Program-made: the position numbers and the translations under genes
Origin: an uncultured Alphaproteobacteria bacterium
GTDB lineage: Bacteria > Pseudomonadota > Alphaproteobacteria > UBA11222
NCBI GenBank assembly: GCA_947258435.1
Contig: CAMYID010000022.1
Coordinates: forward strand, 170,961-234,960
Length of the DNA: 64,000 nucleotides
Direction of reading: 5' to 3'
Shown: piece by piece, positions 2,070 to 63,680 of the stretch
Layout of the letters: the number at the start of each line of letters is the position of its first letter
Position numbering within the stretch: the stretch's first letter is position 1
The notes under the pieces: model-generated
What the model saw: the letters and a program-made list of their open reading frames with translations, nothing else
The model's database searches: none
What the model was told of the DNA's origin: nothing

Positions 2070-2641
2070 GCGCTGGATCCCGAACGCGGGCTCGGCGGGC
2101 GGATCGCCGCCACAGCCGGCATGATCCCCGTTGAGACGGGGTATGCCGTCCCTTTATCCGCCCCATTATCGGCCGCATCATTCGTCGGGCGGCCCCCGGT
2201 TGGTTCGGCGGTGGGTTCGGCAGTTGATTCAGTTGCGCCGCAATCGCTGCTTACCGCGGCTGGCCCGCGGGTACCGAAATAACGCTGTTCGGCCTGCGGC
2301 AGATTTTCAGCCGCGATAGTCGCGCGATGCACAAACCCCTTTTCGCGCAGATGCCAGCGGCGCAGCTCATTCGCCTCATATGCGACAAGCAGCGAAAAGC
2401 CCAGGATAACAAACTGCCCGTAAGCCGGTTCGGCAAGCAGGGCCTGGCCGGCGGCTGTAACCGCAAAGGACACAAGCAGATAGCCCCCCGTCACAAGCCA
2501 CATCCGATGATACAGCATCCAGATAATCGGGAAGAACAGGGCCGGCCAGCAAAAGCCCTCCTTCACGAAAATCACGCCATTTCCCGGGTCGGTCGGGTCG
2601 GACGCACCGTCCCCATGTTCGAAAACCGTATAAATCCGCAT
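2036..2641 (-). CDS. DUF2628-like small membrane protein
   Basis: 201-aa ORF with two hydrophobic helices (ALFFPIIWMLYHRMWLVTGGYLLVSFAV) and a low-complexity Ala/Glu/Pro/Thr C-terminus. It occupies the conserved slot between hisB and hisH in alphaproteobacteria and overlaps the hisH start by ~34 nt. Confidence 0.55.
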   Translation of the reverse strand: MRIYTVFEHGDGASDPTDPGNGVIFVKEGFCWPALFFPIIWMLYHRMWLVTGGYLLVSFAVTAAGQALLAEPAYGQFVILGFSLLVAYEANELRRWHLREKGFVHRATIAAENLPQAEQRYFGTRGPAAVSSDCGATESTAEPTAEPTGGRPTNDAADNGADKGTAYPVSTGIMPAVAAIRPPSPRSGSSAWGFSLPEGRR

Positions 2642-2676
2642 GCCTTACCGTTCCTGCGCCCCGGCGCGCGGCGCGC

Positions 2677-3276
2677 CTACAGGCTGCCGCTCAGGGTACC
2701 CTTGGTCGACGGGGTACTGTCGCCCGCGCGCGGATCGATCTCCACCGCCTGTCGCAATGCCCGCGCCAGCGCCTTGAAACAGGATTCCACAATATGGTGG
2801 TTATTTTCCCCATATAGGGTTTCCACATGCAAGGTCACCCCCGCCGCCTGCGCAAAGGCCTGAAACCATTCCTTGAACAGCTCGGTATCCATATCGCCCA
2901 GCTTGGGCTTGCTGAAGGCGACCTTCCAGACCAGATAGGGCCGGTTGGAAATATCGAGCGCCACCCGTGTGCAGGTCTCGTCCATCGGGATTTCCGCCGC
3001 CCCATAGCGACGGATACCGACCCGGTCGCCAAGCGCCCTGGCCACCGCTTTGCCGATGACAATGCCCGTATCCTCGGTGGTGTGGTGGAAATCGATATGC
3101 AGATCGCCTTTCGCGCGCACCGTCAGATCGATCAGCGAATGCCGCGAAAGCTGTTCAAGCATATGATCGAGAAAGCCGATTCCGGTCGCCACATCGTAAC
3201 GGCCCTGCCCGTCGAGCGCGATCGTCGCCTCAATCTCTGTTTCCCTGGTGGTCCGGCTTACATTGGCGCTGCGCAT
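2677..3276 (-). CDS. hisB: Imidazoleglycerol-phosphate dehydratase HisB
   Basis: From the internal ATG: [23 protein letters not shown]...[15 protein letters not shown]...[15 protein letters not shown], the IGPD metal-binding motifs. The listed 337-aa ORF is an upstream read-through from a TTG. Confidence 0.85.
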
Positions 3277-11298: not shown

Positions 11299-11599
11299 TC
11301 GATCCAGCCTTGATTTAACACTCTAACAAATTGATATTAAACGGATATTCGACCAGACAAGATTTCCGGTACCCGTCGTTTCCAACGCAAATCGCCCGCT
11401 GTGAATATCTGCCCGCGCTATCACACCCTTTTAACCTCAAGGAAGTATTACCAAGTGCGGAGGAGGTTTTACTCTAACCCCCAGCACCTGCCCGGTCTAG
11501 GAATTGTTCCAATTTGCGCGGCAATTCCGGCAGCCTTATGGTTTGCATCATGCCGCCCCGGTCATTAACAGGTAGGTGCCGTCCAGAGAAAGGGCAAGC

Positions 11600-12191: not shown

Positions 12192-12707
12192 ATGAGCGAC
12201 GAAAATCAGCAGGAAACGCCACCCGCTGCGGATAACGGCCAATCTGCACCGGAAAATCTGCCACGACTTGTCATTCTGACCCAGTATGTGAAGGATTTTT
12301 CATTTGAAAATCCCAATGCACCGGCAAGCCTCTTCCAGGGCAATCCGCAACCCAATATCAATGTGTCGGTCGATGTTCAGGCGCGGCGCAGCGGGGAGCA
12401 GAATTTCGAGGTCGATCTGCATATCTCGATCGAAGCGAAACAGGATGATGACGCGGTTTTCGTGACCGAGCTTGTCTATTCCGCCCTGTTTGCACTGGAA
12501 AATATCCCGCAGGAAAATCTGCAGCCTGTATTGCTGATCGAATGTCCACGGCTGATTTTCCCCTTTGCCCGCAGGATCATCGCCGACGCCACCCGGGATG
12601 GAGGGTTTCCCCCGCTCATGCTCGATCCGATCGATTTCGCGCAGCTCTATCAGCAGCAGATTGCGGCAGCCCAGGCTCAGGCGGCCGAGGCTAATCAGCC
12701 CAACTAG
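12192..12707 (+). CDS. secB: Protein-export chaperone SecB
   Basis: LVILTQYVKDFSFENPNAP...LLIECPRLIFPFARRIIADATRDGGFPPLML, a SecB signature. Confidence 0.9.
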   Translation: MSDENQQETPPAADNGQSAPENLPRLVILTQYVKDFSFENPNAPASLFQGNPQPNINVSVDVQARRSGEQNFEVDLHISIEAKQDDDAVFVTELVYSALFALENIPQENLQPVLLIECPRLIFPFARRIIADATRDGGFPPLMLDPIDFAQLYQQQIAAAQAQAAEANQPN

Positions 12708-14156: not shown

Positions 14157-15026
14157 TTATTGGCCGGCCGCATCAATATCGGCCAGAATTCGCACCCTTA
14201 ACGCATCATCGACTTCCGGTTCCGTGCCAAACCATGCGGCAAAGCCCGGCCGCGCCTGATGCAACAGCATACCAAGCCCATCCACAACAGGGTTGCCACG
14301 CGCCGCAGCCGCGCGCAACAAATCCGTCTGCAGGGGCGTGTATACGATATCGTTCACCAGCGCGGCCACCGGTAAAAGATCAAGCGCAAGATCAAGCGAG
14401 GCTTTCCCCTGCATGCCAAGCACCGAACTGTTCACCAACAGATTTACATCGACGCAAGCCTGCGCGCGCGCGGCCCACTCGTAAACCCGGACCGGACCGC
14501 CAATATCGGCAGCCAGCTTTTCCGCGTTTTCACGGCTTCTGTTGGCAATTCGGATTTCAGGGGTCCCGGCATCGCACAATGCCGCCAATATGGCGCGCGC
14601 CGCGCCCCCCGCCCCGATCAACAGTGCCGGCCCGGCATCGGCCCGCCAGTGCGGTGCCGACAGGCGCAGATTTTCCATAAATCCGAAGCCATCGCTGTTC
14701 GAGCCTGAAAAGCGCCCGTCAGCATCGATCACAACCGTATTGACCGCCCCGATCCGGCGCGCATTGTCATCGACAATATCGCAGGCCGCAAGGGCACGTT
14801 CCTTATGCGGCACTGTCACATTACATCCGGCAAAACCACGCTTTGCGAGGGCCCTGAATTCGGCGTCGAAAACTTCCGGTTCGATCGGCAGCAGATCATA
14901 GGAACCCGCAATATGATATTTTTCCAGCCAATAACCATGCAGCAACGGGGATCGCGAATGGCTGACCGGCCAACCCACCACCCCGGCCCGCGGGGGCCCG
15001 GCATGACTGTTCTCGTCCCTATGCAA
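14157..15026 (-). CDS. aroE: Shikimate dehydrogenase
   Basis: GVVGWPVSHSRSPLLHGYWL...GCNVTVPHKE...LLIGAGGAARAI; AroE substrate and NADP motifs. Confidence 0.85.
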   Translation of the reverse strand: MHRDENSHAGPPRAGVVGWPVSHSRSPLLHGYWLEKYHIAGSYDLLPIEPEVFDAEFRALAKRGFAGCNVTVPHKERALAACDIVDDNARRIGAVNTVVIDADGRFSGSNSDGFGFMENLRLSAPHWRADAGPALLIGAGGAARAILAALCDAGTPEIRIANRSRENAEKLAADIGGPVRVYEWAARAQACVDVNLLVNSSVLGMQGKASLDLALDLLPVAALVNDIVYTPLQTDLLRAAAARGNPVVDGLGMLLHQARPGFAAWFGTEPEVDDALRVRILADIDAAGQ

Positions 15027-15624
15027 AACTTACCTCATATTCCCGATACTGACGAAGAAATGACAGGAGCGGGAGGAGTGGGAGCCCAAGTATGGTAAAG
15101 TAATCCCCCCGAATTTCGGAGAACAATTGCGCACCAAGCGATTCAAGCTGATAGGCACCGACAGAATCGCAGACCCGGTCTCCCGCCGATGCCAGATAAC
15201 GATCCAGAAAGCTGTCCGGAAAATCCCACATGGCAAGATCGGCGCGATCCTGACAGGTCCACACAATATCATCCCCGCAGGCCACACAAACCGCGCAGAC
15301 CAGCTGATGGGTATCGCCCCGCAGGCGCTGCAGCATCTGCCGCGCTGCAGCCATATCCGCCGGCTTGTCATATTGCTTGTTGTCATGCAGCAGGATCTGA
15401 TCCGCACCGATAACCAGCGGGCCGGGATAGTTGCGTGACAATGACAGGGCCTTTTCCTGCGCAAGCCGCAATGGAAGCCCGGACACAGGGTACTTGCGCG
15501 CGCGCAGTCTTTGCTTGACTTCGCCCTCGTCAATCAATGGTCTCATCATCTCGAAATTCAATCCGGCATCGGATAATATTTGCCGCCGTGCCCGACTGCC
15601 CGATCCCAGGATAAGACCGGTCAT
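15019..15624 (-). CDS. maf: Maf-like nucleoside triphosphate pyrophosphatase
   Basis: From the internal ATG: MTGLILGSGSRARRQILSDAGL...VIGADQIL. It overlaps aroE by 8 nt and the upstream gene by 4 nt. Confidence 0.8.
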   Translation of the reverse strand: MTGLILGSGSRARRQILSDAGLNFEMMRPLIDEGEVKQRLRARKYPVSGLPLRLAQEKALSLSRNYPGPLVIGADQILLHDNKQYDKPADMAAARQMLQRLRGDTHQLVCAVCVACGDDIVWTCQDRADLAMWDFPDSFLDRYLASAGDRVCDSVGAYQLESLGAQLFSEIRGDYFTILGLPLLPLLSFLRQYREYEVSFA

Positions 15625-16469
15625 AAAGCCTCTCGTTCTGTCAGCAGGTTCAGAATGGCCGCCGCGGTTTCTTCGACCGAACGGCGGGTGACATCGATCA
15701 CCGGCCATCCGTGCCGGGAGAACAAACGCCGAGCAAAACGTATTTCCTCAGCGACTGTTTCAGGATCTGTATACTGACTGTCCTGCGGCTGATTAAGGGA
15801 GCGCATACGATTGCGCCGGATATCGATCAGAAGATCGGCGCTTGTCGTCAGCCCGACAATCAGCGGCCCGCGCAGATTTGCCAAAGCGGCGATTTGCGGT
15901 GTCCCGGGGACGATGGGAATATTCGCCGCCTTCAGTCCGCGATTGGCAAGATAAACGCAAGTCGGCGTTTTCGATGTCCGGCTCACCCCTGCCAGCACCA
16001 CATCAGCTTCCGACAGATCGTCGCCAAGCTGCCCGTCATCATGTGCCATCGTATATTGCAGCGCCTCGATCCGATCAAAATATTCATCGTCAAGCGCATG
16101 CTGCCCGCCGGGCCGGTGTGTGGTTTCAGCCCCCAGATAACTTCCGATCAGGGAAATGACAGGATCGAGCAGCGACAGACTTCGGATTCCGCGCGCATTG
16201 CAATATTCTTCCAGTTGGGTCCGCAGCGCATCATTCACCAATGTATAGATGACGATGCCAGGAGCATTCGCCACCTGATCGAGCACACGGGCAAGATGGC
16301 GTTCGGTCCGGACAAGAGCATAGCTGTGCGTTATCGGCACACCGGTATCGAATTGCGCCATCGTGGCTTTTGCCACTGCATTCAGGGTTTCACCTGTCGC
16401 ATCCGAAATCAGGTGCAGGTGAAAATAGATGCCAAGCCGGTTCGAACGCCGGTTAGTGGCTGGCGCCAT
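15621..16469 (-). CDS. Pyruvate-phosphate dikinase / PEP synthetase regulatory protein (DUF299 kinase-pyrophosphorylase; RP001 homolog)
   Basis: YFHLHLISDATGETL...VVLAGVSRTSKTPTCVYLANRGLKAANIPIV, a DUF299 P-loop signature. Confidence 0.8.
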   Translation of the reverse strand: MAPATNRRSNRLGIYFHLHLISDATGETLNAVAKATMAQFDTGVPITHSYALVRTERHLARVLDQVANAPGIVIYTLVNDALRTQLEEYCNARGIRSLSLLDPVISLIGSYLGAETTHRPGGQHALDDEYFDRIEALQYTMAHDDGQLGDDLSEADVVLAGVSRTSKTPTCVYLANRGLKAANIPIVPGTPQIAALANLRGPLIVGLTTSADLLIDIRRNRMRSLNQPQDSQYTDPETVAEEIRFARRLFSRHGWPVIDVTRRSVEETAAAILNLLTEREAL

Positions 16470-16949
16470 ATGCCACCACCTTTCGATATGCCGGCTGCGG
16501 CGCGGCAGACCGTGAATTACGGGGATTACGGGGATAAGTAGCGGTTCCGGGGCGCGTGCTGATTTTCCTCACGATTCCGTTCTCACTCTGACCATCCTTT
16601 TTTTCACACTGAACAAGATTATATCGTGGCTGTGGATAATAGTGCGGGAATTCACATAAACGGTCCGCCAGCCATCCTTCACGATCAGCAGCCTTTGATT
16701 TCAGCGATAAAATCACCTGCCGATCCCCATGGATACGCCGTTACACCGACAACCGGACCGAGGATTGACTGTGGAAAAGTCGGGCATAATATTTTATCCC
16801 CATTATTCAGCGCTTCAGCAACATCATCATCTTTTTATATCTATATAATTGATATGACCTAAGATGGGGATAAAGCACGACACCGTCAGTCAGACGATCA
16901 ACCGAAAGACAATTCTATCACTAATCAGACAAAACTTCTGCTTGCAGCC
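16470..16949. other. Candidate chromosomal replication origin (oriC)
   Basis: A 480-bp AT-rich intergenic region inside an otherwise ~62% GC window, sitting in the DUF299(RP001)|hemE position. It holds a perfect DnaA box TGTGGATAA (16631-16639); one-mismatch boxes at 16770-16778 (TGTGGAAAA), 16794-16802 (TTATCCCCA) and 16865-16873 (TGGGGATAA); a weaker box at 16529-16537; and a strongly AT-rich 40-bp block (16817-16860) next to hemE. Confidence 0.6.
16631..16639 (-). promoter_or_regulatory. Consensus DnaA box (TTATCCACA on minus strand)
   Basis: Exact 9/9 match to the consensus, read directly. Confidence 0.6.
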
Positions 16950-17960
16950 TTGCAAGGGAAAAAAACCGAGCGACCACCTGTCTGGCTGATGCGGCAGGCA
17001 GGGCGCTATCTTCCCGAATATCGCAAAGTCCGCAGTCAGGCCGGGTCATTCCTCAATCTGTGCTATTCACCCGATCTTGCGACCGAGGTGACATTGCAAC
17101 CGATCCGCCGCTTTGGCTTTGATGCATCGATCTTGTTTTCCGACATTCTGGTCATACCCGATGCGTTGGGACAGAAAGTGGAATTCAGGGAAAATATCGG
17201 GCCGGTGCTTTCCCCCAGAATCAGATCCGCTGACGATCTGGACCGATTACGCACCGATGAAGCCGCTGACCGGCTGGAACCGGTTTATCAGACAGTCAGA
17301 AATCTTGCGGCTGCCCTGCCCTCAAATGTGACGCTGATCGGCTTTGCAGGCGCGCCCTGGACAGTGGCCACCTATATGGTCGGCGGCGAAGGCTCGCGTG
17401 ATCAGGCCGAAACAAGGCTATGGGCCTATGCGGAACCCCAGGCTTTTGAACGGCTGATCAATTTGCTTGTGGAAACCACGGCGGCCTATCTGATCCGGCA
17501 GGTCGAAGCAGGTGCTGAAGTACTGCAGCTGTTTGATACCTGGGCGGGGTCACTGCCCGAACGCGAATTCGAGCGCTGGTGTATCGCACCGATTGCGGAA
17601 ATCGTGAAACGGGTCAGGGCCAGATATCCGGCAGTACCGATTATCGGATTTCCACGTGGCGCGGGCCAGCGTTATGCGGAATTTGCGCAGCGGACGGGGG
17701 TTAATGCGGTTAGCATTGATGTGACGGTTCCGCTCCACTTTGCAAAGACCGAAATCCAGCCAGGCTGCACCGTGCAGGGCAATCTCGATCCTCTGTTGCT
17801 TGTCAGCGGGGGCAAGGCAATGACCGGGGAGGTCGATCGCATTCTGCACAGCCTTGGGGAAGGGCCGTTTATCTTCAATCTCGGGCATGGAATTGTGCCG
17901 CAGACCCCGATTGATCATGTCGCCGCTCTGGTGGAACAGGTGAAGAGCTATCGGGGGTAA
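16950..17960 (+). CDS. hemE: Uroporphyrinogen decarboxylase
   Basis: RPPVWLMRQAGRYLPEYR...; the full URO-D fold. The listed start is a TTG. The conserved KLLLAAL motif continues in-frame upstream without an ATG, so the true start may be a few codons upstream. Confidence 0.9.
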   Translation: MQGKKTERPPVWLMRQAGRYLPEYRKVRSQAGSFLNLCYSPDLATEVTLQPIRRFGFDASILFSDILVIPDALGQKVEFRENIGPVLSPRIRSADDLDRLRTDEAADRLEPVYQTVRNLAAALPSNVTLIGFAGAPWTVATYMVGGEGSRDQAETRLWAYAEPQAFERLINLLVETTAAYLIRQVEAGAEVLQLFDTWAGSLPEREFERWCIAPIAEIVKRVRARYPAVPIIGFPRGAGQRYAEFAQRTGVNAVSIDVTVPLHFAKTEIQPGCTVQGNLDPLLLVSGGKAMTGEVDRILHSLGEGPFIFNLGHGIVPQTPIDHVAALVEQVKSYRG

Positions 17961-17964
17961 CGCT

Positions 17965-18996
17965 ATGGCTGTTTCCGAACAGGGGCGGATTGCGGTGGTG
18001 CTATTCAATCTGGGCGGACCGGATAGTCTGGATGCGGTCAGACCCTTTCTGTTCAACCTGTTCAATGACCGTGCGATCATAAATCTGCCGCAGCCATTAC
18101 GCTGGTGCGTGGCGCAACTTGTCTCCCGGTTGCGGGAGGGGACCGCGCGGGAAATTTACGGTGAGCTTGGCGGTGCGTCGCCGATATGGCCGCAAACCCG
18201 GGATCAGGCGGCGGCTCTTGAGAAAGCGCTTGCCGCGCGTGGCATTGAACAAGCCAGATGTTTTATTGCCATGCGATACTGGCACCCCCTGGCGGAAGAA
18301 ACGGTCCAGGCGGTGCGTGAATTCAATCCCGATCATGTGGTTTTATTACCGCTTTATCCGCAGTTTTCGACGACAACGACCCGATCGTCACTTGGACAAT
18401 GGCGTAGACTTGCAGACGATTTTACGGCGCGGACGCATATAGTTTGCTGCTATCCGGAGGAAAAGGGCTGGATTGCCGCGCAGGCCGATCTTATTCGCAG
18501 CGCGCAAGCTGAAGTCGGGGGCGATGGTGCCATACGCCTGCTGTTTTCCGCGCATGGGCTGCCAAAGAAAATTGTCGATCGGGGCGATCCCTATCCGCGG
18601 CAGGTGGCACGGAGCGTTGAGGCGGTTCTGGCCGCGCTTGGCAGGCCATCGGATATCGATTACGAGATTTGCTATCAGAGCCGGGTGGGGCCGCTTGAAT
18701 GGATCGGCCCTTCCACGGAAGATTGTCTCGAAAAAGCGGGCAGGGAAGGCAAATCTGTACTGGTTATCCCGATCGCCTTTACATCGGAGCATTCCGAAAC
18801 GCTGGTCGAGCTGGATATCGAATATCGCGCGGTGGCCGAACGTTGCGGGGTGCGTGACTATATACGTGTGCCGACGGTCGGCAGCCACCCGGCTTTTATC
18901 GCCGGGCTTGCCGATCTGTGCGAGACAGTGCTGTCGCAGGATTGCTATTGCGGTGACAGCGGCGCGGGGGAAAGTTGCCTGGGCGATGGGAACTGA
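17965..18996 (+). CDS. hemH: Ferrochelatase
   Basis: IAVVLFNLGGPDSLDAVRPFLFNLFND...LLFSAHGLP...; ferrochelatase signature. Confidence 0.9.
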   Translation: MAVSEQGRIAVVLFNLGGPDSLDAVRPFLFNLFNDRAIINLPQPLRWCVAQLVSRLREGTAREIYGELGGASPIWPQTRDQAAALEKALAARGIEQARCFIAMRYWHPLAEETVQAVREFNPDHVVLLPLYPQFSTTTTRSSLGQWRRLADDFTARTHIVCCYPEEKGWIAAQADLIRSAQAEVGGDGAIRLLFSAHGLPKKIVDRGDPYPRQVARSVEAVLAALGRPSDIDYEICYQSRVGPLEWIGPSTEDCLEKAGREGKSVLVIPIAFTSEHSETLVELDIEYRAVAERCGVRDYIRVPTVGSHPAFIAGLADLCETVLSQDCYCGDSGAGESCLGDGN

Positions 18997-19014: not shown

Positions 19015-19464
19015 GTGCCTGATTTTCTGAGTGAATGGTATCTCTGGATCAAGAGCCTGCATATCGCGGCGGTGATTGCGTGGATGGCGGGCATGATGTA
19101 TCTGCCGCGACTTTATGTATATCATTGCGCAGCGCCGGATGGCAGCGCGCAATCGGAAACCTTCAAGATAATGGAGCGCAAGCTGCTGCGCGGGATCATC
19201 AATCCTGCAATGGTTGCAAGTTTTCTGTTTGGCGGGTTGTTGCTTGTCACGCCAGGTGTAATCGACTGGTCCGACGGTTGGATCTGGGTCAAGCTTGCAG
19301 GCGTTCTCGGACTTGCGGCAATCCACGGATTTTTCAGCCGGTGGCGCAAGGATTTCGAGGCGGATCGGAATGTTCGGCCGGCAAGGTTCTACCGTCTGGT
19401 GAATGAAATACCGTTTGTTTTTCTGCTGATCATCATTGTCATGGTGATTGTCAGGCCGTTTTAG
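19015..19464 (+). CDS. hemJ: Protoporphyrinogen IX oxidase HemJ (UPF0093/CopD-like)
   Basis: YLWIKSLHIAAVIAWMAGMMYLPRLYVYH...; HemJ family, ~150 aa with 4 TM helices, directly downstream of hemE and hemH. Confidence 0.8.
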   Translation: MPDFLSEWYLWIKSLHIAAVIAWMAGMMYLPRLYVYHCAAPDGSAQSETFKIMERKLLRGIINPAMVASFLFGGLLLVTPGVIDWSDGWIWVKLAGVLGLAAIHGFFSRWRKDFEADRNVRPARFYRLVNEIPFVFLLIIIVMVIVRPF

Positions 19465-21025: not shown

Positions 21026-21210
21026 TTGCAGATACCGGATCGGAAACAGCTGACAGGGAATCCCGACAGGCGGCAAGCCATACGGTGAAGGCGGGACCAT
21101 GTTATCTGCGCCTTTGAGCTGATAAACCTGAATTTTCCCTGTTTTGGGGGATTCAACGGCTGTTTTGTCGGAAAATATCGTATTTTTAGTGAGTGGGCGG
21201 AATCTGTAAT

Positions 21211-22119
21211 TTACTGGAACGCCGACTTCGCCCTGGCAACCCCCAAGGCCCATTCACGCGGTTCGATGGCATATTCCTGCCGGAAGCGTGCAAGATGAAC
21301 AAACCGGTCCATCAGACCGTAGCAGACGACGATCTGCTTATCCGCAGGTTCCCAATAGGCGTTGCTCTGACCGCAGGTGCGGAAGACAATCTCCACCGGC
21401 TCGGGAAAGCGGTACTGCCGGTCCAGCTGGGCAATAACGGATCGAATGACCGGTGAATCTGTGAGCCATTTTTTATAGCGCGTTTCTTTCGGCGTCTCGG
21501 TCTTGTCGAAAGTGATTGTTATCTGATTCCCTGAATTATCGGTACGGAAGGTGTTTTGCAGGAAATTCAGCCCTTTTTCTGCCTTCTGGAAATCTTCCGG
21601 GCATAAAATCGCGCGATCTATGGGAATTTCATTAGCAATGGCGAAATCCTTCAGATTGTCCGGATCGCGCCCGTAAGCCAGGCAGGAAAGGTCGTAAAGC
21701 CGCTGAATTTCAAGAGAATGCGGATCCGAATAGGCAATTTCCATCTGATCCTGTTCAATAATGGTCCATTCGATACGCCAGGCATCGATAACCGCCTGCA
21801 GCTGATCGATTGTCGTTTGCGGCAAAGGCCCCTCATGATCGCGGGTCAGAAGCAACATGATCGCCAGATGGTCGGCAATATCTTCTTCCCGCCCCAGGAC
21901 GGGAAAGCCGATTTCGTCGATCAGCAAATGGATAAGTTCGTGAACAACACTGAATTCGGTATTGGCAAGGATGAATTGTCGGACGTCGGGGTCAGTTTCG
22001 TCCGCCGCGGCGTCGGGGACCAGGGCGGGGGTGAGCCACAAACCCAGCATTAGAGTGGCAACCGCACAACCGTGCCATGATCGGTTGGAAATCCGCTTGA
22101 GGAATGATGGTTGCCGCAT
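21211..22119 (-). CDS. DUF4344-like putative secreted zinc metallopeptidase
   Basis: Signal peptide from the internal ATG (MRQPSFLKRI...LMLGLWLTPALV) and an HExxH motif (VVHELIHLLIDE). The family assignment is from memory. Confidence 0.55.
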   Translation of the reverse strand: MRQPSFLKRISNRSWHGCAVATLMLGLWLTPALVPDAAADETDPDVRQFILANTEFSVVHELIHLLIDEIGFPVLGREEDIADHLAIMLLLTRDHEGPLPQTTIDQLQAVIDAWRIEWTIIEQDQMEIAYSDPHSLEIQRLYDLSCLAYGRDPDNLKDFAIANEIPIDRAILCPEDFQKAEKGLNFLQNTFRTDNSGNQITITFDKTETPKETRYKKWLTDSPVIRSVIAQLDRQYRFPEPVEIVFRTCGQSNAYWEPADKQIVVCYGLMDRFVHLARFRQEYAIEPREWALGVARAKSAFQ

Positions 22120-22333
22120 GATGGTTCGTTCCCGTGCGCCGGTGAGCGAAAAATTCAAGTAAGCGTTAAAAAACTAGCCAAACCAACAGGTTACCTATTA
22201 GATGTGCAGGGTGCGGGGCGGTGTCAAGCAATTGCCCTGTTCCGCCGGGGTCAGGATTTGCATTCGGTGGCGCTGTCGGGCGTAACATTCTGCCGCCCGA
22301 CAGTCCTGGTTTTGGGAGGCGATCAGATCGCTG

Positions 22334-23032
22334 TTACGCAAGATGGTCGCGGAAGAATGCCAGGGTCCGGTCCATTGCCAAAGCTTCAGCCTTGGCATCG
22401 TAATGTTCGCCGCCTTTACGGGCAAAAGCATGATCCTGTTCGGGATAATCATGTAATGTGCAGTTGGGGTTGCTATCCAGTCCCGCATGCATTGCCTGCT
22501 GCATTTCCGGCGGAACAAAGCTGTCCTTGCCGGCAATATGCAGCATCAATGGTTTTGAGATATTGGACGCTTCGCCAATCAGATCGGGAATATTGACCCC
22601 GTAATAGCCGACCGAGGCATCCGCATCGGTGCGTGTGGCCGACAGATAGGCCATCATGCCGCCAAGACAGAACCCCACGGTGCCGACCTTGCCGGTACAT
22701 TCGGGCATGTCGCGTAATGTGGCGATGGTGGCGGCAATATCTTCCGCACCCTTGTCGCGATCGAATTGTCCGAACAGCGAGAAGGCCTTGTCCCATTCTT
22801 CCTTGCTTTGATCGGTGATGTTGACGCCGGGTTCAATGCGCCAGAAAATATCGGGACACAGGGCGACGAAACCCTTGGCGGCAAAATCATCCGTGATCTC
22901 GCGCATAACCTGATTGACGCCAAAAATTTCCTGAATGACCACCACGCCGGGGCCCGATCCGCCCGCTGGTTTGGCTAAATAGCCCATGAACTCGCCATCG
23001 GGTGTTGAAATCGTGATTTCTGATCCGCTCAT
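22334..23032 (-). CDS. Dienelactone hydrolase family protein
   Basis: VVVIQEIFGVN...GFCLGG (nucleophile elbow)...DHAF. The internal ATG at 23032 is preceded by AAGGGAGG, so it is preferred over the 286-aa ORF start. Confidence 0.8.
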   Translation of the reverse strand: MSGSEITISTPDGEFMGYLAKPAGGSGPGVVVIQEIFGVNQVMREITDDFAAKGFVALCPDIFWRIEPGVNITDQSKEEWDKAFSLFGQFDRDKGAEDIAATIATLRDMPECTGKVGTVGFCLGGMMAYLSATRTDADASVGYYGVNIPDLIGEASNISKPLMLHIAGKDSFVPPEMQQAMHAGLDSNPNCTLHDYPEQDHAFARKGGEHYDAKAEALAMDRTLAFFRDHLA

Positions 23033-23231
23033 ATCTACCTCCCTTTGCTGAAACTGCCCCATGCCCGACGCAGTTGGTGCGAACATTGGGTCTGAAATCT
23101 GAATGTCCTGCCCGGTTGCGCGGTCAGGATCAGTGCCAAATATGGCTGCTACCAGTGTAGCCGCGATCAGTGTAGCCGTTAACTGCCGTATCACTGAACC
23201 GTCAATTTACGGTCCGCTTCGTGCAGGCTTC

Positions 23232-25289
23232 TTAAAAACGCGCGGTTGTCGCCGGCTGTTCGCGGCGTTTTATCGGATCGATGGCGTCGGCAAGCATACC
23301 TGGATCGGTCAGCGGCAGCGAGCAGCTTGTTCCGATGCAGACATAGGCGGTTGCGCGATTATCGCGCTGCGTTTTGCCGCGGATCGGATGGTAATGCGGC
23401 AGATCCTGGCCCGGACCGACCACGGTGACCACCTTGTCGGGCACGCATTGGGAATAAACCGCTTGCAGCAGGGTTTGGGTATGTTTATCGCCGCGTTCGC
23501 CGATAATGACAATCTGAACACCCATTTCGGTAAATTCGAAAGCATTGAGCAGGCTGGCGAGGGGCAGAAAATTCTTCCGGAACTCACCGCCAAATGCTTC
23601 GACCGTATTGAGGGCCCGTTCACGATAATTCGCATCGCCCGTCAGATAGTAAAGCCGGGCGAGAACCTCCGTCATCACACTGTTGCCGTTCGGTGTTGCG
23701 TGATCGGTGGCCTGGCGGGTGCGCGCGACAAGGTCGTCTGCATCCTCTGGCGTGTAGAAATAGCCACCATTGCGCGTATCCCAGAACAGCCGGTTTGCCG
23801 TCTCCACCCAGGCCAGCGCATCATCGCGGTAATCTTCGATGCCGCTGAGCTCGTAAAGTGCCAGGGCGGCACGGCTCATTTGTGCATAATCGTCAAGGAT
23901 ATCGGCTTGCTTCGCCTGTCCGTCGCACCAGGAATGGCAAAGCCTGTTGTCCGGCCTGCTCATTTTGGCGTGAACAAAGTGATAGGCATTGGCTGCCAGT
24001 TCGAACCAGTCAGAACGATTGAATATCGCCGCGGCATTGATGAGTGCGGTGATCATCATGCCGTTCCAGTCGGCAAGAACCTTATCGTCGCGGCCGGGTC
24101 TGATCCGTTTCTCGCGCGCCACCCGCAGCTTGTCGCGCAGCAGCGCGAGGCGGCGCTCATCGGCATCGGATGCCAGTTCAAGATTGGCAGAGCGGTTGAG
24201 GATATTCGTACCCTCCCAGTTGCCCGTGGGTGTCACGTCATAATGTTTCTTGAAGAATTTGGCATCAATGCCCAGAATATCGTCGATTTCCGCCTCGGAC
24301 CAGACGTAGAATTTGCCTTCTTCGCCTTCACTGTCGGCGTCCAGGGTCGAGGCGAAGCCGCCCTCGGGCAGCACCATTTCGTTCTGCAGCCAGGCGACCG
24401 TCTCGAATACGCGCCAGGCATAAAGCGATGAATGAGTGTTCTGCCAGACATAGGAAAGCAGTTCGATGAGCTGCGCATTGTCATAGAGCATCTTTTCGAA
24501 ATGCGGGACAAGCCATTGTTCATCGGTCGAATAGCGTGCAAATCCGCCGCCGATATGGTCGTAAATGCCACCCTGACAGATGTTATCCAATGTGGTGAGG
24601 GTGGTTTTCTTCATGGCTTCATCGCCAAGCCGCAGATAGCCGCGCCACAATGTCGCGAAAATCGATGTTTGCGGGAATTTGGGGGCGCCGCGCAGCCCGC
24701 CGCGAACAGGGTCGATTTGCCGGACCAGACCACGAGCCGCGAAATCCAGAACTTCGGGATTGATCGCGGCGGAATTTGCCGTTTCTGCCATGTTTTGTAA
24801 CGCTTCCTTCAATGCTTCCTGATTGTTTTTAACTTTGCCCGGTTCGGATTGGAAGACATTGTGCACTTCCTGAAGAACCGCTTTGAAGGAAGGGCGGCCA
24901 AAACCGGCCTGCTTCGGAAAATATGTGCCGCCCCAGAACGGATCTCCCTCCGGGGTCAGAAACATGGTCAGGGGCCAGCCGCCCGGTTGGCCAAGCAGGA
25001 TCAGGGCATTCATATAGATGGCGTCGACATCGGGCCGTTCTTCGCGATCGACCTTGATATTGATGAAATAGCTGTTCATCAGATCGGCGGTTTCGGGATC
25101 TTCGAAGCTTTCATGGGCCATCACATGGCACCAGTGGCAGGCCGCATAGCCGATCGAAAGCAGGATCGGCCTGTTCTGTTCGCGCGCGGCGGTAAAGGCC
25201 GCTGTCCCCCAGCCGTACCAGTGCACCGGATTATCCTCATGCTGGCGAAGATAGGGGCTTGTTTCCTCGGCAAGCCGGTTATGTGTCAT
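23232..25289 (-). CDS. Thioredoxin-domain protein (YyaL/DUF255, N-acyl-glucosamine-2-epimerase-like fold)
   Basis: From the internal ATG: SPYLRQHEDNPVHWYGW...GYAACHWCHVMAHESF, a DUF255 thioredoxin-like N-terminus, followed by a six-hairpin glycosidase-like C-terminus. Confidence 0.8.
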   Translation of the reverse strand: MTHNRLAEETSPYLRQHEDNPVHWYGWGTAAFTAAREQNRPILLSIGYAACHWCHVMAHESFEDPETADLMNSYFINIKVDREERPDVDAIYMNALILLGQPGGWPLTMFLTPEGDPFWGGTYFPKQAGFGRPSFKAVLQEVHNVFQSEPGKVKNNQEALKEALQNMAETANSAAINPEVLDFAARGLVRQIDPVRGGLRGAPKFPQTSIFATLWRGYLRLGDEAMKKTTLTTLDNICQGGIYDHIGGGFARYSTDEQWLVPHFEKMLYDNAQLIELLSYVWQNTHSSLYAWRVFETVAWLQNEMVLPEGGFASTLDADSEGEEGKFYVWSEAEIDDILGIDAKFFKKHYDVTPTGNWEGTNILNRSANLELASDADERRLALLRDKLRVAREKRIRPGRDDKVLADWNGMMITALINAAAIFNRSDWFELAANAYHFVHAKMSRPDNRLCHSWCDGQAKQADILDDYAQMSRAALALYELSGIEDYRDDALAWVETANRLFWDTRNGGYFYTPEDADDLVARTRQATDHATPNGNSVMTEVLARLYYLTGDANYRERALNTVEAFGGEFRKNFLPLASLLNAFEFTEMGVQIVIIGERGDKHTQTLLQAVYSQCVPDKVVTVVGPGQDLPHYHPIRGKTQRDNRATAYVCIGTSCSLPLTDPGMLADAIDPIKRREQPATTARF

Positions 25290-25492
25290 GCGATGTCCTT
25301 TTGGCCTGGTATCGTGCGAATTGGCCTGATGTCGTGCGAATGGATTGCGCGCCGGCAACGGGCTGCGCATAGTCTTGGTTCATAGCTGGCATTTATTATC
25401 TTAACTGACAATAGTGCGCGTGCGACGAGACGCCAATAAAATAGAAAGGCGCGGCAATCTCTCGTCGCAAAGCCATTGTTTGGAGAAAGCCG

Positions 25493-25747
25493 ATGAAAAT
25501 CAATGTAACTGTCGATTGCACGCCGCAGGAAGCGCGGGAATTCTTGGGCTTGCCGGATATTGAGCCGATGCAGCAGCGTTTGCTGAAACAGGCCGAGGAG
25601 CGCTTTAACAAGAATCTTGCCGCCATGGATGTTGACACCCTGATGAAAACGATGACGGGCACCGCATTCGGCAATATCGAGCGCTGGCAGGAGTTTGTGA
25701 CAGGCGTGCTTCAGACGGGTATGCGTGGCAAGCCCGGTGATGAATAG
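25493..25747 (+). CDS. Small conserved hypothetical protein (84 aa)
   Basis: Clean ORF with a plausible upstream AG-rich region (ggagaaagcc). No motif recognised. Confidence 0.4.
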   Translation: MKINVTVDCTPQEAREFLGLPDIEPMQQRLLKQAEERFNKNLAAMDVDTLMKTMTGTAFGNIERWQEFVTGVLQTGMRGKPGDE

Positions 25748-27196: not shown

Positions 27197-27212
27197 TGTT
27201 TCACGTGAAACA
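27197..27212. promoter_or_regulatory. parS centromere site (TGTTTCACGTGAAACA, perfect palindrome)
   Basis: Read directly in the mnmE-mnmG intergenic region. Confidence 0.75.
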
Positions 27213-29930: not shown

Positions 29931-29946
29931 TGTTTCACGTGAAACA
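29931..29946. promoter_or_regulatory. parS centromere site (TGTTTCACGTGAAACA, perfect palindrome)
   Basis: Read directly, immediately upstream of the parA GTG start. Confidence 0.75.
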
Positions 29947-62252: not shown

Positions 62253-63530
62253 TCAGACGGGAATATGAGGGGTTTCGCCGGTATAGCGCGCCCGGGGTCT
62301 GATCAGTTGCGGGGCCTGATATTGTTCGATCGCATGGGCGATCCAGCCAATTGTGCGTCCCAATGCAAACAGGCTGAGACCTGCCGATTGCGGCAGGCCG
62401 AGAATGAAGCCGATACTTGCAAGGGCAAAGTCGATATTGGGTTTTTGGCCGGTGGCGCGGCTCACCAGATCGCGAATCGTCAAGATGATCTGTAATTGCG
62501 GAAAATCGGGATAGACCTCACGCAGCATCGCGAAAAGCTGCGCCGCGCGCGGATCGCCCTGCGGATAAAGCGGCTGCCCGAAACCGGGTGGCATTTCGCC
62601 AGCCCGCATTCTGTCCAATACATATGATTCGGGATTGCCGCTGCGTGCCGCATCCTGCAGATAGGCCGCGACCCGCAGGCTGTGACCCCCATGCAGCGGG
62701 CCTTTCAGGGCGGACAGCCCGGCAATCACCACCCCGTAAAGATGCGCCCGGGTCGCCGCCACGCAACGGGCGGTAAAAGCCGAGGCATTCAGCTCGTGAT
62801 CGGCGCACAGGATCAGCGCGCCGCGCAGCATTTCGGCGGCGGCAACGCTTGGTAATTGCCAGGCCCGGGCCAGATAGTCATGCAGCGGCTGGGTGGTGAT
62901 TGCATGTGCCCGGTTATCTGTATGACCGGTTTCCCCATTCTCCGAAACCGCCCCGGCCAGGCCGATAATCTGTGTCATCAGACGCAGGATCCGCCCGCCG
63001 GTTGCAGCCCGGCCCGCTTTGGTTTCATTGAAAATCGTCTCATCGCCCGCCGCGGCCACCGGCAACAGGGCAAGGCATTGGTCAATCGGGTCCAGTCCGA
63101 TCACCGCTTGTTGGGTGGTGCGGAATGCGGTGCTTCTGTCGGGCAGCAGGGCGGCGACGAAGGGGTCGGTATCTTCCACATCCCATAGCAGGCGGGCCAC
63201 CTGCTCCACACTTGCATTGCGCGCCAAAGCGGTCGCATCGATACCGCGATAATAGAGTGCCCCGTCGGCGATCAGGGTCAATGCGGAATCAAGTACCGGC
63301 GATCCCCAATGCAGCGCCTGCGGGGCGGTGTCGTCCTGTGTGCGGGGACCTTGCGGTTCGCGCCTGGCTTTCAGCCGCCGCACATCCTCATTGCGATAGC
63401 GTCTCGAGCGGCCAGCCGGTGTCGGTTCGGACCGGATCAGACCCCGGCTGACATAGGCATAAAGGGTTGGCAGGCTGATCGATAATTCGGCCGCCGCCTG
63501 CTTCGCCGTGAGATAGATATCCTCATCCAT
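62253..63530 (-). CDS. HTH (MerR/excisionase-type) domain fused to citrate-synthase-like domain; predicted non-catalytic
   Basis: N-terminal HTH (LTAKQAAAELSISLPTLYAYVSRGLI). C-terminal citrate-synthase fold motifs (ILCADHELNASAFTARCVAAT; LSALKGPLHGG; LGRTIGWIAHAIEQ). The GFGHxVY motif reads PGFGQPLY, so the catalytic His is replaced by Gln. Confidence 0.7.
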   Translation of the reverse strand: MDEDIYLTAKQAAAELSISLPTLYAYVSRGLIRSEPTPAGRSRRYRNEDVRRLKARREPQGPRTQDDTAPQALHWGSPVLDSALTLIADGALYYRGIDATALARNASVEQVARLLWDVEDTDPFVAALLPDRSTAFRTTQQAVIGLDPIDQCLALLPVAAAGDETIFNETKAGRAATGGRILRLMTQIIGLAGAVSENGETGHTDNRAHAITTQPLHDYLARAWQLPSVAAAEMLRGALILCADHELNASAFTARCVAATRAHLYGVVIAGLSALKGPLHGGHSLRVAAYLQDAARSGNPESYVLDRMRAGEMPPGFGQPLYPQGDPRAAQLFAMLREVYPDFPQLQIILTIRDLVSRATGQKPNIDFALASIGFILGLPQSAGLSLFALGRTIGWIAHAIEQYQAPQLIRPRARYTGETPHIPV

Positions 63531-63680
63531 TGATATATATTGAATGACTTAATCAACATTGACCAGTCTAATCCGCATATCCATTCTGTCTGGCAGAAAT
63601 CCGGCCGTTCCGGCCGCTTGCGATTGTCAGCCCAGGGGCTGTCAGACAGCTCATTGACGAATGATGAAAGTGGTAACAAT

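Follow-up and report, generated by a model that had tools for sequence, protein, structure and literature searches.

The window analysed here is a 64-kb stretch (64,000 nucleotides) of contig CAMYID010000022.1 from an uncultured alphaproteobacterium. It contains a 480-bp gap between two divergent genes, a DUF299 gene and hemE, which we take, with high confidence, to be a predicted chromosomal replication origin (oriC) belonging to the hemE-linked type first mapped in Caulobacter. The gap combines features by which alphaproteobacterial origins are recognised (PMC1914354, PMC5144681), namely the position, an above-chance cluster of DnaA boxes, and an adenine plus thymine (AT) content above that of the window with an AT-rich tract. 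A DUF299/COG1806 gene and hemE are the boundary genes of the mapped Caulobacter origin and of the proposed Rickettsia origin (PMC1914354, PMC6393856), and the intergenic region beside hemE with the COG1806/DUF299 (RP001) gene on its other side serves as the positional criterion for oriC (PMC1914354). Sphingomonad origins have likewise been placed upstream of hemE (PMC5144681), and in Hyphomonas a marker-frequency peak was found close to hemE, with parAB and two consensus parS sites a few kb away (PMC6650430). The locus in the window is syntenic with mapped origins: the identities of the divergent DUF299 and hemE genes, and with them the hemE-Cori-RP001 arrangement proposed in the initial annotation, were borne out by NCBIfam models. 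Brassinga et al. (2001) reportedly described a conserved cluster RP001-hemE-hemH-RP883 (RP883 being hemJ-like) around the origin, and the corresponding cluster RP001-hemE-hemH-hemJ is present at the locus.

The gap carries a non-random cluster of DnaA boxes. Sites with at most one mismatch to TTATCCACA occur 16 times in the whole window (6.9 ± 3.2 in shuffles), and 4 of these 16 fall into the gap, all inside 243 bp (16631–16873) and including the sole perfect box of the 64 kb. Every other 500-bp stretch of the window holds at most 2 boxes. Among 20,000 Markov sequences simulated at the gap's own dinucleotide composition, the mean was 0.15 boxes and none contained 4 or more. All four boxes had been predicted at exactly these coordinates (Table 1). 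The perfect box reads TGTGGATAA on the plus strand and shares its 13-nt context TGNCTGTGGAWAA with the box at 16770–16778 (TGTGGAAAA on the plus strand), whereas the two remaining boxes are copies of TTATCCCCA, the right-hand one reading TGGGGATAA on the plus strand. The left-hand copy contains TCCCCA, the consensus core of the W-boxes, weak sites essential to Cori of Caulobacter (PMC4285127, PMC4468827). This core occurs in 3 copies in the gap versus 0.18 expected, 2 of which are invariant in the four lineages described below.

Further box-like sites lie closer to DUF299. Two variants, TAATCCCCG and TTATCCCCG, are arranged in tandem one helical turn apart; the second reads CGGGGATAA on the plus strand, the tandem ATTACGGGG covers 16517–16534, and the counterpart in two related lineages (L167 and L170) consists of two exact ACGGGGATAA units. 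The sites TTTTCCTCA and TTTTTCACA are DnaA-box-like, the latter fitting the relaxed alphaproteobacterial DnaA-box consensus TT(A/T)TNCACA (PMC5144681). As a separate observation, the one-mismatch variant TTATCCGCA is found outside the gap at 12227, 18354, 21338 and 62560, scattered inside or near genes. These four dispersed copies are probably chance occurrences in a GC-rich genome (GC, guanine plus cytosine).

The AT-rich block near hemE is the easiest DNA of the window to melt. GC content is 59.0% for the window (about 62% had been claimed) and 47.5% for the gap overall. Within the gap it falls from 57% in the DUF299-proximal 130 bp to 41% in 16750–16949 and 25% in 16817–16860, so that the initial description of the gap as AT-rich applies to its hemE-proximal 200 bp but not to its other end. 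The block at 16817–16860 exists as described; it ends 90 bp short of the TTG start of hemE, however, and thus does not abut the gene. A nearest-neighbour scan of the full window at 40-, 60- and 100-bp scales placed the least stable duplexes of the 64 kb at 16825–16865, 16814–16874 and 16775–16875, respectively (z ~4.5). The AT-rich tract is flanked by an 11-bp perfect inverted repeat, TTTATCCCCAT/ATGGGGATAAA, whose arms are 60 bp apart and include the two TTATCCCCA boxes. Folding of the block as DNA gave no significant structure (z = -1.45). The next least stable segments of the window (z 3.5–4.3) lie at 63513–63573, upstream of a citrate-synthase-family gene, and at 11306–11366, between a tim44-like gene and fxsA. 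Since both are free of DnaA boxes, they are presumably promoter regions.

Metagenome and protein-database searches yielded three related lineages, and we aligned the gap across four lineages in all: the window, L167 (HemE 93.5% identical), L170 (90.4%) and L081 (84.5%). L161–L166 are conspecific with L081 (identity of at least 99.5%) and brought no extra divergence. At 4-fold degenerate sites of hemE, L167 and L170 are each 66% and L081 is 45% identical to the window; neutral sites are therefore substantially diverged. Purifying selection acts strongly on the DnaA-box sites and the AT-rich block, while the central part of the gap drifts as neutral DNA does (Table 1). A conserved core block contains the promoter-like site, TGTGGAAAA, TTATCCCCA, a GC cluster, the CAACATCATCATC array, the AT-rich tract and TGGGGATAA. 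All invariant runs of at least 8 bp in the gap, except for one near hemE, overlap a DnaA-box-like motif or the AT-rich tract. Nucleotide alignment of the gap to distant origins gave no match beyond L081, L167 and L170, save for 27 bp in L089 (HemE 58% identical), where a tandem TTATCCCCG-TTATCCCCA at 2714–2733 belongs to a segment 92.6% identical to 16513–16539 in opposite orientation. Among 185,579 GTDB species representatives the best HemE match is 64% identical, Emcibacter and Magnetospirillum are the named genera with the closest HemE (~61–63%), and related DNA (L081, L161–L167, L170) was found in metagenome assemblies only, beach-sand samples among them.

The same organisation recurs over a wider family. 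The divergent DUF299/hemE gap is kept in 126 of 160 related loci (median 431 bp), and almost all related loci have aroE-maf on the left and (hemH)-hemJ-rho on the right. Boxes with at most one mismatch to TTATCCACA reach 4.0 per kb in the 126 gaps versus 0.19 per kb in ~1 Mb of flanking DNA, a 21-fold enrichment. In an unbiased 9-mer count of these gaps, TGTGGATAA ranked first and CGGGGATAA fifth, and TGGGGATAA and TGTGGAAAA were also among the commonest words. The 'weak' variants are therefore recurrent elements of this origin family. This holds for the site at 16529–16537, which the initial annotation had located exactly, together with the direct repeat beside it, but regarded as a weaker box. 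In the family, the 50-mer of lowest GC content has a median distance of 82 bp upstream from hemE; in the window it lies 112 bp before TTG 16950.

Table 1. Features of the proposed origin region and its surroundings, with positions in the window; 'invariant' refers to the four-way alignment.
Feature	Positions	Strand	Observations
Proposed oriC, whole DUF299/hemE intergenic region	16470–16949		480 bp; box cluster, conservation, melting
DUF299 left boundary gene (pyruvate,phosphate dikinase/PEP synthase regulator, COG1806, RP001 type)	15621–16469	-	NCBIfam NF003742, E = 2.8e-96
hemE right boundary gene (uroporphyrinogen decarboxylase)	16950–17960	+	TIGR01464, E = 1.3e-128
Tandem ACGGGGATAA block	16513–16539		Invariant 24/27
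Tandem DnaA-box variants TAATCCCCG (16520–16528) and TTATCCCCG (16529–16537)	16520–16537	-	One helical turn apart; conservation
TTTTCCTCA, putative DnaA-box-like site, two mismatches	16563–16571	+	TTTTCCTCAC invariant in four lineages, flanks diverged
TTTTTCACA, DnaA-box-like, relaxed consensus	16600–16608	+	TTTTCACA invariant in four lineages
ATTTTCCTCAC			Invariant 10/11
Perfect DnaA box of high-affinity type, TTATCCACA	16631–16639	-	Only perfect match in 64 kb; invariant 9/9, flanks diverged
Middle of gap	16640–16762		Invariant 27/133, several indels
Core block	16763–16875		Invariant 101/113
Sigma-70-like promoter match TTGACT-N16-TAATAT toward hemE; spacer holds DnaA box 16770–16778	16765–16792	+	Consensus scan; invariant in four lineages
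DnaA box TTTTCCACA, one mismatch	16770–16778	-	Invariant in four lineages
DnaA box TTATCCCCA, one mismatch, left arm of 11-bp inverted repeat	16794–16802	+	Box scan, repeat, conservation
AT-rich block, candidate DNA unwinding element, 26% GC	16813–16862		Least stable duplex; nearly invariant in four lineages
Period-3 array CAA CAT CAT CAT C, between GC cluster (CAGCGC) and T-run	16819–16831	+	Invariant in four lineages; DnaA-trio-like, non-canonical
DnaA box TTATCCCCA, one mismatch, right arm of inverted repeat	16865–16873	-	Box scan, repeat, conservation
parS, perfect, TGTTTCACGTGAAACA, start of mnmG	27197–27212		Motif scan
parS, perfect, TGTTTCACGTGAAACA, 5' part of parA	29931–29946		Motif scan

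The chromosomal neighbourhood agrees with the synteny suggested at the outset (secB-dnaQ-coaE-aroE-maf-DUF299, hemE-hemH-hemJ-rho and mnmE-mnmG-rsmG-parAB), all of which was recovered with NCBIfam. Left of the gap, on the minus strand unless marked, lie hisH, hisB, hslU(+), smr, lutB-like, mltA, tim44-like, fxsA(+), secB(+), dnaQ, coaE, aroE, maf and DUF299. To the right, hemE, hemH (17965–18996), hemJ (19015–19464) and rho are encoded on the plus strand, followed by three unrelated minus-strand genes and then, again on the plus strand, mnmE (25760), mnmG, rsmG, parA and parB. Beyond parB, holA and leuS are encoded on the minus strand, and more housekeeping genes (mutS, glnD, petABC) follow. 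Because these neighbours are housekeeping genes, the replicon is the main chromosome and not plasmid-like, and repABC genes were not seen in the window. The two perfect parS sites, compared with 0.12 sites expected even at up to 3 mismatches, mark the chromosomal centromere. Together with parAB they lie 10–13 kb from the proposed origin, parAB being 13 kb from hemE. Confirmed coding bases are 81% minus strand left of the gap and 70% plus strand right of it, and such a switch of gene orientation at the gap itself is typical of an origin.

Some details of this neighbourhood stand apart from the question of the origin. The spacer between rho and mnmE (21100–25700, ~4.7 kb) has a lower GC content of 51–56%, and its minus-strand genes encode a DUF4344 putative metallopeptidase, a YghX-like hydrolase and a DUF255 thioredoxin-domain protein. 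Many relatives have mnmE at a shorter distance behind rho than the window does. The DUF299 gene starts with ATG at 16467–16469, and start codon and N-terminus are kept in L081, L167 and L170. An open reading frame of 87 amino acids at 16453–16716 on the minus strand was rejected as a gene, as indels between lineages break its frame.

At the AT-rich tract the elements follow each other in the order DnaA box, GC cluster, period-3 array CAACATCATCATC, T-run and AT-rich tract. A similar order of box, GC cluster, period-3 array and AT-rich tract characterises the basal unwinding system (BUS) of Bacillus subtilis, E. coli and others. Formally, a BUS consists of a DnaA box (at most 2 mismatches) at 0–16 bp from at least 3 NAN trios that adjoin the unwinding region (PMC8287927). 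In the window, however, the repeat is CAA/CAT and not the complement of GAT, and the sole hemE-directed candidate, with trios 3'-TAG TAG TAG AAA AAT-5', has a spacer of 20 bp. The sole formal match is located beside the perfect box and points toward DUF299 (spacer 8, TAT TAG AAC AAG); this pattern is loose enough to occur by chance. Across the 126 gaps the formal pattern was found 39 times toward hemE and 28 times in reverse, versus 13 in shuffles, a modest enrichment.

A related module, (CAA/CTA/CAT)n-CC-TTTTTAT, is present 100–145 bp upstream of hemE in ~13 distant relatives (15 matches versus 2.1 in shuffles). In L088 (gap ~2615–3000), L089 (2868–2935), L031, L083 and L101, a DnaA box and a short spacer precede the array, and an AT-rich tract comes after TTTTTAT. 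L088 combines a TTATCCCCG box, a 13-bp spacer, CTA CTA TTA CTA (3'-GAT-5' on the other strand) and then TTTTTATAAAAATAT, that is, canonical trios, and the array of L089 is (CAA)6, with the central A absent on the expected strand. One tentative and rather unlikely reading is that the unwinding module represents a lineage-specific variant of the DnaA-box/DnaA-trio arrangement. Its hallmarks would be the inverted weak TTATCCCCA pair around the AT-rich element and a CAA/CAT/CTA array that replaces the 3'-GAT-5' trios, common to the ~13 distant gaps at the given distance from hemE.

Several points speak against the gap as origin. The evidence base is computational and confined to a 64-kb window, and the dnaA gene is absent from these 64 kb. 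The footprinting rests on four lineages, all of which are fairly close. A formal BUS is missing at the main AT-rich block, because its 20-bp spacer exceeds the maximum of 16. The cumulative GC skew of the window has its minimum at 16–17 kb, but when skew was regressed on strand and side for the 38 confirmed genes within the window, the orientation effect was 0.066 ± 0.012 and the side effect only 0.022 ± 0.013. The skew switch is thus mostly the switch in gene orientation and provides no independent evidence within the window. Finally, the promoter scan alone was not significant (2 found versus 1.0 ± 1.2 in shuffles), and some of the conservation might relate to transcription instead of replication.

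From the sites described above, we infer DnaA binding, an unwinding site, promoter activity and origin firing along the following lines. DnaA would occupy the perfect box as well as the weaker ones, that is, the tandem TTATCCCCG-type pair, TTTTCCACA and the inverted TTATCCCCA pair, and it may also bind TTTTCCTCA and TTTTTCACA. A DnaA oligomer could then open the 50-bp AT-rich block bracketed by the inverted TTATCCCCA pair, possibly assisted by the adjacent array CAACATCATCATC. Helicase loading and bidirectional replication would follow, with the flanking genes largely co-oriented with both forks. By analogy with the strong hemE promoter of Cori (PMC6393856), the promoter-like site might drive hemE transcription through the unwinding region.

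How well does the origin fare against a gap that only controls transcription? The gap might be a divergent promoter or regulatory region for hemE and DUF299, bound by DnaA as a transcription factor, with the origin located elsewhere. The overlap of the invariant promoter-like site with a DnaA box fits such a role, as does the weakness of the skew evidence after gene orientation is allowed for, and DnaA is a known transcriptional regulator (PMC8203912). But a promoter has no need of seven or more box-like sites, or of inverted boxes on either side of the window's least stable 50 bp, and it would leave unexplained why boxes stay enriched 21-fold across 126 distant genomes. Moreover, the mapped Caulobacter origin occupies the same locus, the Hyphomonas peak is close to hemE (PMC6393856, PMC6650430), and parS and parAB adjoin the locus. 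We therefore consider a purely transcriptional role improbable.

Alternatively, the core block (113 bp) could act mainly at the RNA level, as a hemE 5' leader or small RNA, rather than in unwinding. It does sit between the promoter-like site and hemE, and in Caulobacter the origin contains a small RNA gene as well as start sites of mRNAs (PMC6393856). However, an Rfam scan of 15000–18500 retrieved no family at E <= 1, and the putative hemE leader folded no better than shuffles (z = -1.7, not significant). Its conserved runs fall on DnaA-box motifs and on the AT-rich tract, and an RNA element would account for neither the distal perfect box nor the tandem boxes, which makes this role very improbable. 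Equally hard to sustain is a relic or inactive origin, or that of a secondary replicon, with the active origin moved, much as the hemE/COG1806 pair was split in Wolbachia: rearrangements of the locus are documented in Anaplasmataceae (PMC1914354) and our view covers 64 kb of the replicon, yet purifying selection on the sites is strong today, hemE and DUF299 still form an intact pair, and the locus has core housekeeping neighbours and a chromosomal parABS system, with repABC genes not seen.

Returning to the gap as an origin, one of its closest counterparts is Cori of Caulobacter crescentus. Cori is likewise bounded by hemE and the DUF299 gene (CCNA_00001), has an AT-rich region of ~40 bp and mixes stronger with weak DnaA boxes, the recurrent W-box core among them. 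A promoter-like site for hemE inside the origin and parS and parAB nearby are further common traits. The gap differs from Cori in that it lacks the G-box TGATCCACA and a match to the IHF consensus WATCAANNNNTTR. It has one GANTC (16573), not conserved in L081, compared with five in Cori, and a perfect E. coli-type box, which Cori does not have. As the initial annotation had noted, TTAA-N7-TTAA sites for CtrA are lacking; none was found in the gap, even with one mismatch. Judged by these motifs, the gap is not a Caulobacter-type CtrA-gated origin. The lack is expected, since CtrA sites have not been seen in origins outside Caulobacter, with Rickettsia as a possible exception (PMC4468827).

Among other known origins, that of Sinorhizobium meliloti is said to have been characterised experimentally (Sibley et al. 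2006, Microbiology 152:443). This and other Rhizobiales origins upstream of hemE share the aroE-maf-DUF299 and hemE-hemJ-rho neighbourhood with the window, but nucleotide similarity to the gap is undetectable. In addition, the GANTC-rich motifs (CAGACTCTAAGAATC) conserved in Rhizobiales gaps are absent from the gap of the window, and hemH stands between hemE and hemJ in the window but not in Rhizobiales. Hyphomonas neptunium resembles the window in having parAB and two parS sites near hemE, whereas skew and DnaA-box searches gave no clear result there, in contrast to the clear box cluster found here. The gap also differs from an E. coli-type oriC: its 3 GATC sites are not above the window average, and 13-mer direct repeats are absent from the AT-rich block.

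The right edge of the gap depends on the start codon of hemE, for which TTG 16950, CTG 16938 and ATC 16917 are candidates. After the stop at 16860–16862, TTG 16950 is the only canonical in-frame start; homologues begin 8–14 codons farther upstream. If ATC 16917 is the start, the gap may end at 16916. The NCBI annotation of L081-like metagenome-assembled genomes uses the ATC equivalent to 16917 (347 amino acids, MSSQTKLLL...), and L170 has ATA at the equivalent position. In L081, TTA corresponds to 16950, and TTG takes the place of the window's CTG at 16938. In public gene calls, this HemE and its relatives begin at the internal ATG 16989, which leaves out the conserved RPPVWLM motif. ATG 16864 combined with a -1 frameshift on the A7 run was dropped as a candidate start; this ATG is located within a conserved DnaA box, and its use has no support.

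The hemE-linked origin type is already well known, and what is new is very probably an example in an uncharacterised lineage. The known workings of alphaproteobacterial origins are unchanged by it, and specialists would find value only in the base-level footprint and in the non-canonical trio-like array. For a lineage without a close relative among the GTDB species representatives, the proposed origin would fix replication-oriented coordinates, which helps to orient genomes, to estimate growth rates from metagenome coverage and to design plasmids or vectors. At base level, the footprint from four lineages shows which sites are constrained; these sites, among them TTATCCCCG/A variants overlooked by a strict E. 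coli consensus, are concrete targets for mutagenesis. Should the trio-variant reading prove true, the sequence rules for DnaA on single-stranded DNA would be broader than now described.

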